From Candidatus Thorarchaeota archaeon (GTDB lineage Archaea; Asgardarchaeota; Thorarchaeia; Thorarchaeales; Thorarchaeaceae), in contig JAEOUG010000029.1 of assembly GCA_016839445.1 (NCBI GenBank), positions 1-24,866 on the forward strand: 24,866 bases of DNA, written 5' to 3'. Both the position numbers and the translations under genes were made by a program. This document shows positions 5,917 through 9,506 of this stretch, piece after piece; position 1 is the first letter of the stretch; each line of letters begins with the position of its first letter. The notes below the pieces were generated by a model. That model was not told where the DNA came from, ran no database searches, and saw nothing but the letters and a program-made list of their open reading frames with translations.

Positions 5917-6699
5917 CTACTTCCTCCAGGTGAGAAGCGACTCCCTGTCTATCTGGCCCCCGACAATCTTCAGATAGGCATCCTCAAGGTCATCTGCGCC
6001 GGCTTGCTCGACGATGTCTTGGGGTGAGCCCAGGACCTGCAACGACCCGTTAGTCAGGATGCCGATTATGTCACATGTGTCCTCCGCGAAGCTGGTCATG
6101 TGTGTGCAGATGAAGAAGGTCGTTTCCGTTTCCTCTGCAAGAGCTAGGATCAGGTCGCGCACAAGAACGCTTGCAGCAGGATCAAGCCTGGAAGTCGGTT
6201 CATCGAGAAAGACCAACCTAGGTTCGTGCAGGAGAGTCGAGGCTACGAGCACCTTCTGCTTCATTCCTGATGAATACGACTCGAGGAGGTCATCCTGGCG
6301 AGACTCAAGTCCAAGAATACCAAGCAGCGCATCTATGCGCCTCATGAGTTTCTCTCCTCCTACTCTATTGAGAGCACCCACGAACTCCAAGAACTCCACA
6401 GCAGACAGCTTGGAGTAGAGACCGGGTGACTCAGGTAGAAGCCCTGTGACTTCCTTCACCTTATTCCTCTCCTTGGCAACATCAAAGCCGCAGACTGTTG
6501 CAGAGCCACTACTCTGCTGCAGGAGGCCTGAGAGGATTCGCACTGTCGTTGTCTTCCCAGCTCCGTTCGGACCCAGGAATCCAAACCTACTACCCTGACC
6601 AACGGCAAGGCTGAGATCATCCACAGCTCGGATTGGTCCAAACTGCTTGCACAAAGAATCTGTGATGATTGCTTTCTCTCTATCCAAACGAATGCCCAC
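5917..6699 (-). CDS. ABC transporter ATP-binding protein (ABC-2/DrrA-like)
   Basis: Walker A GPNGAGKTT, signature YSSGMKQK, Walker B VFLDEP and H-loop CTH. Likely start is GTG 6699 or TTG 6687, downstream of the TATA box at 6727-6721. Confidence 0.92.
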   Translation of the reverse strand: MGIRLDREKAIITDSLCKQFGPIRAVDDLSLAVGQGSRFGFLGPNGAGKTTTVRILSGLLQQSSGSATVCGFDVAKERNKVKEVTGLLPESPGLYSKLSAVEFLEFVGALNRVGGEKLMRRIDALLGILGLESRQDDLLESYSSGMKQKVLVASTLLHEPRLVFLDEPTSRLDPAASVLVRDLILALAEETETTFFICTHMTSFAEDTCDIIGILTNGSLQVLGSPQDIVEQAGADDLEDAYLKIVGGQIDRESLLTWRK

Positions 6700-6720
6700 G
6701 GGTGGGGCTTCGCGTGGGCC

Positions 6721-6727
6721 TATATAA
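6721..6727 (-). promoter_or_regulatory. TATA box for the ABC operon
   Basis: TTATATA on the minus strand, about 22-34 nt upstream of the candidate ATPase starts. Confidence 0.6.
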
Positions 6728-6767
6728 GTGGCATATTCGGCGCAGTGTTGTTGCCGGAAAAAGGTGC

Positions 6768-6840
6768 GAACCAGCGGCTCTTGCAGAGCTGTCAAGCACA
6801 CGCTCCATCTTTCGGCATGTGCCATCATCCGTGCTGGTCC
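6768..6840 (-). ncRNA. SECIS-like / kink-turn cis-regulatory RNA in the cysS 3' UTR
   Basis: GGACCAGC-ACGG-AUGAU-GGCACAUGC-CG-AAA-GAUGGA-GCGUGUGCU-UGAC-A-GCUCU-GCA-AGAGC-C-GCUGGUUC. This gives an 8-bp helix I, a UGAU/UGAC tandem-GA core, a 9-bp helix II and an apical AAA 11 nt after the core. A U5 tract follows at 6762-6758. Confidence 0.55.
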
Positions 6841-6852
6841 CAGTTTTGGGGC

Positions 6853-8286
6853 TCACTTCAGCTTCCAAGTGGGCCCGTCTTTGGTGTCCTCAACAAGCAC
6901 TCCGATTTCGGCGAGGCGGTCTCTAATCTTGTCAGCAGTCGCGAAGTTCTTCGCCTTCCGGGCATCCTCTCTAAGCTCCAGGAGCAGGTCAATCGAGCCC
7001 TTGAGGACCTCCGATGATGAGCTGTCACCCTCTCCGACCTTCTTCTCTGACATTTCAAGCCCAAGTATCTCAAGGAGGACTCCTAGCGTGGCAAGTGCTT
7101 CACGCAGAACGGCGGCGCCTCCAACCTCAGGTGTCAGAGTATTGAGTTCACGAATGAAGGCGAACACCTCGGCGATTCCCCCGGGAGTGTTGAAGTCGTC
7201 ACTCATCTCTCGCACGAACCCCTCTGAAAGCTTCGCAATAGCCTCGCTGAGCTTCTCGTCTGCCTCAGCTTCTCTGCTGCCTGCCTTCTCCAGGATTGAT
7301 ATTCTACCTCGAACGGAGTCGACAGCGTTTCTGATTCTCTCAACAGACTGTGTGGCCTGCCTCAGCGCGTCGTCGTTGTAATCAAGGGGCTGTCGGTAGT
7401 GCCCAGAGATGAGATAGAATCGAACGGCCTGATGATCGTAGTTGTCGAGGACCTCTCTGGCTGTGGCGAAGTTCCCTTCCGACTTGCTCATCTTGTCTTT
7501 GTTGATAGTCAAGAATCCGTTGTGGAGCCAGTACTTCACTGGTTGCTCTCCGTAGGCGGCTGTTGACTGAGCTATCTCGTTCTCATGGTGCGGGAAGATG
7601 AGGTCTTGGCCTCCTCCATGGATGTCGAAGGGTATGCCTAGGTAGTGCTTACCCATGACTGAGCATTCGGCGTGCCAGCCCGGCCTACCTTTGCTCCAAG
7701 GGCTCTCCCAAGAAGGCTCTCCGGGCTTCTCAGCTTTCCACAGCGCGAAGTCTCTGGGGTCCTGCTTCTTCTCGTCTACATCTACTCGAGCTCCCGCAGA
7801 GAGGTCCTCAGGATTAATGCCTGAGAGAGCTCCGTACTCCTTCAATTCGCTGACATCGAAGTAGACATCGCCATCGACAGCGTAGCCCTTCCCGTTCTTC
7901 AGGATCAGCCCAACCATCTCGACGATATCATCGATGTGCTCAGTGGCCCTTGGGTTCACCGTTGCGGGCTTCAGATTCAGTTCATCAGCAATCTGTCTGT
8001 ACTCCGCGATGAACTTGGCTGCAAGATCTGAAACCGCCACTCCATCTCGGTTTGCCCGGTCAATCATCTTGTCGTCCACATCCGTGAAGTTGGTCACGTA
8101 GGTCACACGGTACCCCGTATATTCAAGGAAGCGGCGTATAGTATCGAACACGGCGAAGGACCTGGCATTGCCTATGTGAGGATAGTCATAGACTGTCGGA
8201 CCACAGACATACATCCGAACATGGTTTCCTTCAAGTGGTTCGAATTCTTCCTTCTTTCGACTTAGGGTATTGTGGACTTTCAGCAT
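6853..8286 (-). CDS. cysS: Cysteinyl-tRNA synthetase
   Basis: MYVCGPTVYD..HIGN, DFALWK, GRPGWH.ECS.M, DIHGGG.DL.FPHHENE, KMSKS, DDFNTP and ADKIRD.L. Start ATG 8286 (MLKVHNTL); stop is TGA. Confidence 0.98.
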   Translation of the reverse strand: MLKVHNTLSRKKEEFEPLEGNHVRMYVCGPTVYDYPHIGNARSFAVFDTIRRFLEYTGYRVTYVTNFTDVDDKMIDRANRDGVAVSDLAAKFIAEYRQIADELNLKPATVNPRATEHIDDIVEMVGLILKNGKGYAVDGDVYFDVSELKEYGALSGINPEDLSAGARVDVDEKKQDPRDFALWKAEKPGEPSWESPWSKGRPGWHAECSVMGKHYLGIPFDIHGGGQDLIFPHHENEIAQSTAAYGEQPVKYWLHNGFLTINKDKMSKSEGNFATAREVLDNYDHQAVRFYLISGHYRQPLDYNDDALRQATQSVERIRNAVDSVRGRISILEKAGSREAEADEKLSEAIAKLSEGFVREMSDDFNTPGGIAEVFAFIRELNTLTPEVGGAAVLREALATLGVLLEILGLEMSEKKVGEGDSSSSEVLKGSIDLLLELREDARKAKNFATADKIRDRLAEIGVLVEDTKDGPTWKLK

Positions 8287-8431
8287 CAGTTGTACCCTGT
8301 GTGCCCTCGACTTGATTCCATAAAAAGGACTCTGCAAGTATTGCCATCATATTGGGCGCCCCTCGCTCACTTGACACCTTCAGAAAGACTATTACTCGCA
8401 TGCTCTCTTCTGATGCTGGTGAGGACTGCCT

Positions 8432-9214
8432 GTGCCATTCTCCTACTCGAGAGAGCTAGACCAGCTTTGGAAAGAAGTCGACCAACTGATAGACGACGAG
8501 CAGTACATTGAGGCGGAGAAGCGTCTGAGGTCATCTCTATCAGAGAATCCACAGAATGCTGACATAATGACCCGAATAGGAGAGGTCTTGGCCTATCAGC
8601 ACCGCGAGAGCGCGGCCGAGACCATGTTTAGGCAGGTCCTGTCCGTGGCACCGACTCACGAACCCGCAGTATCTTTTCTTGGAAGGCTCCTTGACAATAG
8701 CCTCAGAATAAGTGAGGCCGAAGACCTATTCAGGAAGGCGCTAGATGAGGCACCGGATTCTCACTGTGTCAGAGAAGACCTCTGCAGGCTACTCCACGAT
8801 GAGGGCCGGGCTGAAGAGGCGTTGAGAGAAGCACGTGATCATCAGGCTCAATTCAAGTCTACGCCTGAAGCCTACAACGCACTGCGCTATGTCCTGGTCC
8901 GGAGGGAGGAAGAGTTGGAAGACGAACTCGTTGAATCTGAGTGTGCGCCGGAGCTCTACATTGAACTGGCCAAGAACGTCATCGTGCAATACGATGTCCT
9001 CACATCACTTGAATCGGTGCTGAATGCGCGTTCCGCTGAAGATCTTGATGATGATATCGTCAAGGATGTCCAAGGGGACATCTTCAGAATCATTGGCGAA
9101 CTTGAAGACATACGAGGGCAGTTGCGCAAGAGGAAAGGGAAGACCCCACCAGAGATATCCAGACGTATTGAAGACATAGTCAATGATGCCAAGCGTCGGA
9201 GAGAACTGCTCTAG
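8432..9214 (+). CDS. Tetratricopeptide repeat protein
   Basis: Repeated helical A...L/F...L...P pattern (AEKRLRSSLSENP, AETMFRQVLSVAP, AEDLFRKALDEAP) followed by an acidic helical C-terminus. GGTGAGGA lies upstream of the GTG start. Confidence 0.75.
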   Translation: MPFSYSRELDQLWKEVDQLIDDEQYIEAEKRLRSSLSENPQNADIMTRIGEVLAYQHRESAAETMFRQVLSVAPTHEPAVSFLGRLLDNSLRISEAEDLFRKALDEAPDSHCVREDLCRLLHDEGRAEEALREARDHQAQFKSTPEAYNALRYVLVRREEELEDELVESECAPELYIELAKNVIVQYDVLTSLESVLNARSAEDLDDDIVKDVQGDIFRIIGELEDIRGQLRKRKGKTPPEISRRIEDIVNDAKRRRELL

Positions 9215-9221
9215 TCTTCCA

Positions 9222-9506
9222 TCACTGCCATCTGTAGCCTCTCTCTTCGAGATCAGGTGCTTCTGATTCAGAGAGGAGTATGACGTCTTGTATACCCGAG
9301 TTGATGAGCCAAATGTGCACTCTCGAACCCTTCATGCTGTCAAGCATCTTTGCTCTGTCTTCCGATTCGAACCCCATAACCTTGAGCAGACTTGTTAGGC
9401 TCACAGCTCTGTCCAGGTTCTTCCTCACTGCTGCTTGAACACGCTCCTTAGAGCCTGCAGTCATTTTCAGAATCTCAGGGTCTCGAAGAACTGCCTTTAT
9501 TCTCAT
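9222..9506 (-). CDS. Hypothetical protein (94 aa)
   Basis: ATG-initiated ORF with protein-like composition that fills the gap between two genes; probably co-transcribed with the prs-like gene. Confidence 0.65.
   Translation of the reverse strand: MRIKAVLRDPEILKMTAGSKERVQAAVRKNLDRAVSLTSLLKVMGFESEDRAKMLDSMKGSRVHIWLINSGIQDVILLSESEAPDLEERGYRWQ

Follow-up and report, generated by a model that had tools for sequence, protein, structure and literature searches.

A eukaryote-like SECIS element in the 3' untranslated region of a thorarchaeial cysteinyl-tRNA synthetase gene that has no selenocysteine codon

The 3' untranslated region (UTR) of cysS, the gene for cysteinyl-tRNA synthetase (CysRS), of a Candidatus Thorarchaeota archaeon (NCBI GenBank assembly GCA_016839445.1, contig JAEOUG010000029.1, positions 1 to 24,866) contains a selenocysteine insertion sequence (SECIS) element; the whole stretch of 24,866 nucleotides that was analyzed is called the window in the following. 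The element comprises window positions 6768-6840 on the minus strand and begins 11 nt 3' of the cysS TGA stop. An earlier note, made from the letters of the window alone, had proposed a eukaryote-type (Asgard) SECIS at this position, behind a cysS gene without internal UGA. This proposal was borne out: the element has the conserved SECIS core and is matched with 48.6 bits by a covariance model that was built solely from SECIS of vhuU, a selenoprotein gene, which shows that it is a true Thorarchaeial eukaryote-like SECIS and a close paralogue of the VhuU SECIS. The source metagenome-assembled genome (MAG, G000) comprises 2.9 Mb on 190 contigs (89.8% complete, 6.45% contamination), and the window represents its contig C173.

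Two covariance models were used. Model R1 was built from eight same-genus cysS elements, the one of the window included, and model R2 from 23 vhuU SECIS only, in order to avoid circularity. The R2 score of the window element corresponds to E 2.9e-7 over the whole 2.9-Mb genome, and in this genome R2 matches exactly two places, the vhuU locus (86 bits) and the cysS element. Furthermore, R2 matches all 15 cysS-linked elements (26-67 bits) and none of the 30 element-less cysS loci tested (from 54 such loci). The reverse search with R1 finds the vhuU SECIS of the same genome (40.6 bits), so that each element is detected by the model of the other. This second locus, on contig C164, encodes a 438-aa NiFe-hydrogenase large subunit, followed by a small open reading frame (ORF) with an in-frame TGA in a C-terminal metal-binding motif; the small ORF is selenoprotein VhuU. 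R1 matches lie behind vhuU in 15 of 22, 14 of 21 and 19 of 20 contexts in three sets of loci, and eight more (6, 1 and 1 across the same sets) are truncated copies of a vhuU tail with its SECIS at other places.

The cysS and vhuU elements have in common helix I, the G-N-AUGA motif, a helix II (8-9 bp in the vhuU SECIS), an apical loop with G/C-U/G-AAA, the GAC and a mini-hairpin with a YGCAA loop. Among the 23 vhuU SECIS, the AUGA, the G two bases earlier and the AAA are invariant, as is the AC, whose preceding G is at least 90% conserved. The invariant unpaired bases of the vhuU SECIS (G-N-AUGA, apical AAA, GAC with the latitude just given for its G, and YGCAA mini-hairpin) are invariant in the cysS elements too. 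The two differ in their relation to a UGA: the vhuU stop codon is itself the UGA of the SECIS AUGA core, with the selenocysteine (Sec) UGA 84 nt upstream of that stop, whereas the cysS copy begins 3' of the stop codon, without a UGA that it could serve. The stop UGA of Loki VhuU.1 likewise lies within its SECIS core (Mariotti et al. 2016, PMC4989117); in Huang, Xiao & Zhang 2024 (PMC11227280), the vhuU SECIS is named 'frhA' SECIS. For the Thorarchaeial 'frhA' SECIS, G[U/G]AAA is given as apical-loop motif (PMC11227280).

A likeness to the vhuU coding tail persists in the 5' part of the cysS element; because of it, and because truncated-tail copies exist, the cysS element appears to have arisen by duplication of a vhuU 3' end. 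As a separate observation, the extra copies consist of the last ~12 vhuU codons plus SECIS (G041:C24, L064/L072; G077:C46; G080:C19; G012:C152; G003:C93, L248) and lack an intact vhuU ahead of them, with tandem runs of as many as three within 1.5 kb 3' of vhuA-vhuU; they may serve other genes or may be duplication debris.

The fold of the element (Table 1) comprises the two helices, the core, the apical loop and the mini-hairpin, followed by UUUUU, and all of these were found where the earlier note had placed them. The minimum-free-energy fold matches the drawn structure (79-nt element, -32 kcal/mol, z -2.67; 4 of 200 shuffles equal it). The core AUGA begins exactly 24 nt after the cysS stop, and the GA/GA quartet is present. 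Euryarchaeal SECIS are described with a GAA_A bulge between two stems and with G-C pairs in the upper stem (PMC11227280); the GAA_A bulge does not occur in the fold of the element. T-rich runs are found 3' of the element in several relatives, not in all.

For conservation and distribution, R1 was run over 28 genomes of the genus and over 87 Thorarchaeia genomes (67 with a match), and the matches were cross-referenced with cysS matches, which were obtained in 71 of the 87. The element follows the stop in eight of 22 same-genus cysS loci, the window's included, and adjoins cysS in at least 12 of the 87 genomes, in three GTDB genera (g1, g25 and g29; Table 1). Three cases are incomplete: in G076 the cysS C-terminus lies at a contig start, in G073 100 N lie upstream, and G075:C29 (L186) carries a cysS 3' fragment with an element that lacks its 3' helix I strand. 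No further R1 match was found on a cysS-carrying contig of the 87 genomes. The element is also present in one (L256) of eight Thor-like metagenome cysS loci with readable 3' flank. G076 has two cysS ends, on C100 and C256.

Covariation and conservation in related cysS loci, the check that the earlier note had suggested, support the structure. In an alignment of 13 distinct cysS elements, 88.5% of the cells of the 21 pairs are paired, and 14 of the 21 pairs show compensatory changes, which none of 500 shuffles reached; slid-structure controls gave 21-42% paired cells. The AUGA, the G two bases earlier, the AAAG, the GAC and the loop bases of the mini-hairpin are invariant in 13/13. Mean identity is 0.66 among the elements but 0.33 at the fourfold-degenerate sites of cysS, which are saturated; G083 and G097 have 94% element identity at a fourfold-site identity of 0.30. 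Ten pairs with G021 rest on 6-8 fourfold sites and are to be disregarded. Conservation of the element next to saturated fourfold sites demonstrates, at the level of sequence comparison, purifying selection on the element in several lineages.

The sequence pattern by itself does not exceed chance: a strict scan (AUGA, 7-12 bp stem, AAA loop, GA, helix I) gave one match in the real genome, the window element, and 0, 0 and 3 matches in three shuffled genomes. Owing to a bulge in its helix II, the vhuU SECIS escapes this strict scan, which is uninformative on other SECIS classes. The element is regarded as real because of its conservation, covariation and homology, not because of the pattern alone. 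Curated models, which the earlier note had also proposed to use, were of no help: no Rfam family reached its gathering score in the window, and none matched at E<=10 on 301 bases around the element, but the genuine vhuU SECIS, run as control, gave no SECIS match either, just a chance match to TCV_H5 at E 5. The Rfam negative is therefore uninformative, and it is the lineage model, R2, that detects the element.

No UGA was found for the element to serve. There is no in-frame stop in 75 cysS matches (71 genomes) or in ten metagenome cysS loci, and thus no ortholog with a TGA at a cysteine position, which the earlier note had suggested looking for. The window cysS contains two cysteine codons (TGT and TGC, as noted earlier) and a single TGA, its stop codon; the stops of the 12 element-bearing cysS are TGA (three), TAG (five) and TAA (four). 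Since there is no UGA for the element to act on, recoding within cysS probably does not take place. A selenoprotein in an upstream operon was considered and rejected: the upstream neighbor is a divergent TPR gene, as in the window in agreement with the earlier note, or a 94-aa ORF with stop TAG, TAG or TAA, and a TATA box of its own precedes cysS. That the element serves the ABC transporter gene downstream was rejected as well, since the TATA box of that gene lies 3' of the element, the ATPase is DrrA-like (exporter) and this neighbor is present in just three compared loci.

The lineage uses selenocysteine. Two genes with in-frame TGA, selD and vhuU, are found in the genome of the window; selD (219.6 bits) has its one in-frame TGA at the active-site position, and the GUGA at its stop (Table 1) is the core variant reported for Thorarchaeial selD SECIS (PMC11227280). 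A tRNA-Sec gene above the Rfam cut-off adjoins SepSecS in all five element-bearing relatives examined, with the anticodon tca in 3/3 relatives, and a tRNA-Sec with a cysteine anticodon, reading UGY, was discarded on these grounds. A 554-aa GTPase on contig C188 was considered as EFSec and rejected, since by eye it appears to be of GTPBP1 type.

The cysS 3' UTR of most other Thorarchaeia is built from a different module. Within the first ~75 nt after the stop TAG come, in this order, a leader of 15 nearly invariant bases, a spacer rich in A, a hairpin and AAACC. The leader, TAGCCAGACCAAACCACG, stands at the cysS stop, and the 18-base stop-plus-leader occurs once per genome in 5/5 genomes from three genera. 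The arms of the hairpin differ between genera yet remain complementary, and indels in the A-rich spacer make coding unlikely there. Leader and hairpin constitute an undescribed cysS-specific 3'-UTR element; since they are conserved and specific to cysS, the cysS 3' UTR is generally a conserved cis-element site and probably a regulated one. G021, G083, G097 and G042 retain a version of the leader, with the SECIS in place of the hairpin. The SECIS would thus be an alternative module at this site, replacing the cysS-specific hairpin of most relatives. Loci with leader and hairpin include L016, L019, L023, L189, L197, L212 and others; the combination is absent from the window.

We favor, with a probability of roughly 0.45, the interpretation that a SECIS derived from vhuU was co-opted for the cysS 3' UTR, as a module that binds a factor and does not recode. 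The invariant unpaired bases in common with the vhuU SECIS make it most likely that the element would bind the same SECIS-recognizing factor or factors, for which EFSec, or L7Ae/L30e at the kink-turn core, are candidates. Such a factor, bound at the 3' end of the cysS mRNA, might set mRNA stability or translation, and could make the supply of CysRS responsive to the status of the selenocysteine system; alternatively, the element might compete for the factor of the vhuU SECIS. A kink-turn or SECIS-factor-binding regulatory element was one of four options in the earlier note, and would be the one that remains. It is possible, though doubtful, that the SECIS on the cysS mRNA is fully competent and that a Sec-decoding factor couples CysRS to selenium or Sec-tRNA status, or is titrated from the hydrogenase mRNA.

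Several observations weigh against a co-opted regulatory module. About 54 of 66 cysS loci, and most Sec-using Thorarchaeia, are without the element, and any function must therefore be dispensable or replaceable; both element and hairpin are missing from L249, which at 79% identity is the closest cysS found. That the element is transcribed with cysS is deduced from its position. The Sec machinery, which the earlier note had proposed to confirm, was seen as tRNA-Sec and SepSecS in the relatives, and the MAG has the TGA-containing selD and vhuU, but tRNA-Sec, SepSecS, PSTK and EFSec were not found in this 89.8% complete MAG; the absent tRNA-Sec/SepSecS locus is probably an assembly gap. Furthermore, the distribution is patchy: in a quick maximum-likelihood analysis of 66 CysRS rows, of whose tree labels only SECIS is reliable (L204, labelled 'other', has no 3' flank), the SECIS label changes six times, with at least five changes forced by well-supported branches. 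Finally, the CysRS of G016 and G042 are 92% identical in amino acids, whereas their elements are 54% identical. Patchiness and discordance would also fit a mobile, hitch-hiking element.

Eight of the 12 SECIS-bearing tree rows fall in one g1 clade, and the window element is closest to the G042 element. Since the relationships of element and cysS are discordant, the element seems to have been exchanged between lineages or repeatedly lost. G096 has two cysS copies, of which one (C242, L185) is partial and has a 3' flank and element identical to those of G042:C311 (L054), from a different genus; bin contamination or transfer are possible explanations.

Other functions were weighed against the co-opted module. 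An element that merely ends or protects the cysS transcript, without any link to selenium and with motifs that persist since an L7Ae-like kink-turn binder caps the 3' end, is unlikely: it would agree with the plain hairpin of relatives at the same place, with the U5 tract of the window and with the GA/GA core, a kink-turn motif (PMC11227280), but stability requires no invariant AAA(G), G-N-AUGA and YGCAA, which are common to 13/13 elements and the vhuU SECIS, and U tracts are not constant 3' of the element. New Asgard selenoproteins have been proposed to arise by SECIS acquisition from existing genes (Huang 2024, PMC11227280), and the cysS element might represent such a 'SECIS-first' stage without UGA, i.e. 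a vhuU copy that was spread by recombination and is Sec-competent but idle. The disagreement of element and cysS phylogenies, the truncated vhuU-tail copies elsewhere and the vhuU-tail-like 5' part would fit this scenario. It is nevertheless improbable, as an idle element should decay like the fourfold sites (0.33), while core and loop are invariant across three genera, and no Sec-CysRS exists among the 71 genomes and ten metagenome loci. Service to an unrecognized UGA, either within the cysS transcript, in a small ORF or one that overlaps, or in trans on a selenoprotein mRNA, is very improbable, since cysS has its own promoter, the upstream neighbor is divergent or UGA-free and the downstream neighbors vary; for the in-trans variant, we know of no natural trans-acting SECIS. 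The precedent in its favor is one lokiSECIS that is thought to serve several UGAs over ~2 kb (Mariotti 2016, PMC4989117).

The three other options of the earlier note were rejected. A relic of an ancestral Sec-containing CysRS is scarcely plausible: both zinc-ligand cysteine codons are one mutation from TGA, but the survey of cysS genes described above produced no in-frame stop, the element is under selection rather than decaying, and paralogy with the vhuU SECIS points to a later acquisition. Even harder to credit is recoding of the terminal UGA to selenocysteine with a C-terminal extension, for which the window offers a TGA stop and a frame open into the ABC ATPase ORF. Stop codons are mixed, with TGA in just 3/12, and in G007 and G013 read-through would meet a stop after ~18-20 codons, within the element; moreover, the UGA lies 11 nt from helix I, and so close a UGA acts as stop in vhuU, where it is part of the core and the Sec UGA lies far upstream. 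A minimal UGA-SECIS distance has also been argued for lokiSECIS (Mariotti et al. 2016, PMC4989117). A box C/D-like or other independent small RNA has the lowest probability of all, although GAUGAUGG...UUGAC in the window superficially resembles C and D boxes. The consensus is RUGAUGA for the C box and CUGA for the D box (plus C'/D'), while no fixed base comes after AUGA in the 13 elements (U, G or A, then any) and the 3' motif is [U/G/A]GAC, never CUGA; C'/D' boxes, a guide region and an Rfam match are lacking, and the SECIS model matches the full length. An H/ACA RNA was discarded as there is no ACA box 3' of the element, and mimicry of the tRNA-Cys anticodon by the GCA of the mini-hairpin was discarded as the same loop occurs in the vhuU SECIS.

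With respect to known elements, the type I Asgard eSECIS-like model specifies GA_[G/A]A as the core, with 7-15 bp in the stem and 8-20 nt in the loop (PMC11227280). The window element exhibits the core (A/G)UGA...(G/A)A, the upper stem (9 bp, 0 mismatches), an 11-nt A-containing loop and homology within the lineage; what it lacks is an in-frame Sec UGA in the gene or operon whose 3' UTR it occupies. Like the lokiSECIS (Mariotti et al. 2016, PMC4989117), it has an AUGA, a 9-bp stem, an 11-nt loop with an A-rich start and a GA, and is located near a stop; by contrast, the lokiSECIS is described solely behind UGA genes (VhuU, HdrA-VhuD, PrxL, SPS) and, in the cited parts of that paper, without mention of a mini-hairpin in the 3' internal loop. 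With eukaryotic type I SECIS (Rfam SECIS_1), it has in common the AUGA_GA quartet, two helices that enclose an internal loop, A's left unpaired at 11-12 nt from the core, and the location in a 3' UTR, but its helix II is shorter, and neither it nor the vhuU SECIS has an Rfam match. Asgard archaea are reported to be without SBP2 (PMC11227280).

Two further systems involve SECIS-type RNA on an mRNA without Sec codon. 'Fossil' SECIS are found in the 3' UTR of cysteine-containing homologues of eukaryotic selenoproteins, where they follow a Sec-to-Cys replacement and decay; the gene with the cysS element in its 3' UTR likewise contains no Sec codon, but it has no detectable Sec ancestor, and selection acts on the element. 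In E. coli, a SECIS-like element in the selAB leader reportedly binds SelB and represses translation, a finding attributed to Thanbichler & Boeck, 2002. This is a precedent for regulatory SECIS-type RNA on a non-selenoprotein mRNA, and the cysS element may work alike; the E. coli element, however, is bacterial, of unrelated structure, located in the 5' leader of a Sec-machinery operon, and without homology.

A SECIS behind cysS was not found in the literature on Asgard or Thorarchaeota SECIS, on SECIS with cysteinyl-tRNA synthetase and on SECIS regulation. The terms 'cysteinyl' and 'CysRS' have no occurrence in the main texts of PMC11227280, PMC13188914 and PMC4989117, the supplementary SECIS tables not being covered. 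The type of element is known, and a conserved SECIS without a UGA to serve, on the mRNA of CysRS, is new within the literature searched. Asgard SECIS are regarded as a bridge between archaeal and eukaryotic selenocysteine decoding, and we know of no protein that has been identified as their reader. A selected SECIS on the mRNA of a housekeeping non-selenoprotein implies a function beyond recoding, or else a 'SECIS-first' stage, long maintained, in the origin of selenoproteins. If coupling to a Sec factor proved true, a eukaryote-type SECIS would for the first time have a function other than recoding, and the element would be a handle for finding the Asgard SECIS-binding protein, the missing link to SBP2. 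Two paralogous SECIS in one cell, with and without UGA, also form a pair for the identification of factors and of the minimal UGA-SECIS distance. For annotation, the element is a warning that a SECIS alone does not mark a selenoprotein gene. Cysteine is the sulfur twin of selenocysteine, and the element sits on the mRNA of the cysteine-charging enzyme.

Table 1. Element, cysS locus and related features. Plain coordinates refer to the window; others are given as genome:contig:positions.
Feature	Position	Strand	Basis or remark
Helix I, 5' strand, GGACCAGC	6833..6840	minus	pairs with 6768-6775; 4/8 pairs compensatory (13 elements)
5' internal loop ACGG, core AUGA (6828-6825) and U 6824	6824..6832	minus	AUGA invariant
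Helix II, 5' strand, GGCACAUGC	6815..6823	minus	9 bp, 0 mismatches; 8/9 pairs compensatory
Apical loop, 11 nt, CGAAAGAUGGA, unpaired AAA(G)	6804..6814	minus	AAA begins 12 nt after AUGA
Helix II, 3' strand, GCGUGUGCU	6795..6803	minus	fold, covariation
3' core U-GA-C	6791..6794	minus	GA = 6793-6792; GAC invariant
Mini-hairpin GCUCU-GCA-AGAGC in 3' internal loop	6777..6789	minus	YGCAA-type loop; 98% of cells paired; 2/4 pairs compensatory
Helix I, 3' strand, GCUGGUUC	6768..6775	minus	fold, covariation
U5 tract	6758..6762	minus	plausible archaeal termination signal for the cysS transcript
cysS (cysteinyl-tRNA synthetase, 477 aa)	6853..8286	minus	ATG at 8286; Pfam tRNA-synt_1e 5.6e-129, DALR_2, CysS_C
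cysS stop TGA	6855-6853	minus	sequence read
TTATATA box of the next gene	6721..6727	minus	22-28 nt 5' of in-frame GTG 6699
ABC-2-type (DrrA-like) ABC transporter ATPase	5917..6699	minus	Pfam ABC_tran; NCBIfam drrA subfamily 2.5e-61, below cut-off; outside the element
TPR gene, upstream and divergent	8432-9214	plus	ORF/domain listing
Conserved 94-aa ORF	9222-9506	minus	no Pfam or NCBIfam match; also in L018, L021, L024, L029
vhuU SECIS of the same genome (L046)	G000:C164:90812-90892	minus	R1 40.6 bits; R2 86 bits
selD (L010)	G000:C72:23429-24298	minus	stop TGA preceded by G (GUGA)
Element-bearing cysS, genus g1	G000, G001, G003, G007, G013, G016, G018, G021, G042
Element-bearing cysS, genus g25	G083
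Element-bearing cysS, genus g29	G097, G096

The cysS gene is monocistronic with its own promoter. A TATA-like CCTTTTTATGG is conserved ~30 nt 5' of the cysS ATG in relatives, within a promoter-like conserved stretch 5' of cysS (window 8287-8337; also in L018, L021 and L024), and the ORF as originally listed, starting from TTG 8337, is too long, its 5' end running into the promoter. The element belongs to the 3' end of cysS and not to the leader of the next gene, because the TTATATA box lies 3' of it. The genes 3' of cysS vary among genomes (ABC ATPase in three compared element-bearing loci, a convergent gene in others). On the minus strand of the window (5917-6855), the frame is open from the cysS TGA across the element into the ABC ATPase ORF; this open frame is not conserved in G007 and G013, and is therefore probably a coincidence. 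In the SECIS clade of g1, the 94-aa ORF immediately precedes cysS in the same orientation, and in the window and in G021 the TPR gene sits between the two. The promoter stretch misleads six-frame searches, in which 17 spurious N-terminal residues are aligned and a TAA falsely appears 'inside' the gene of some relatives.

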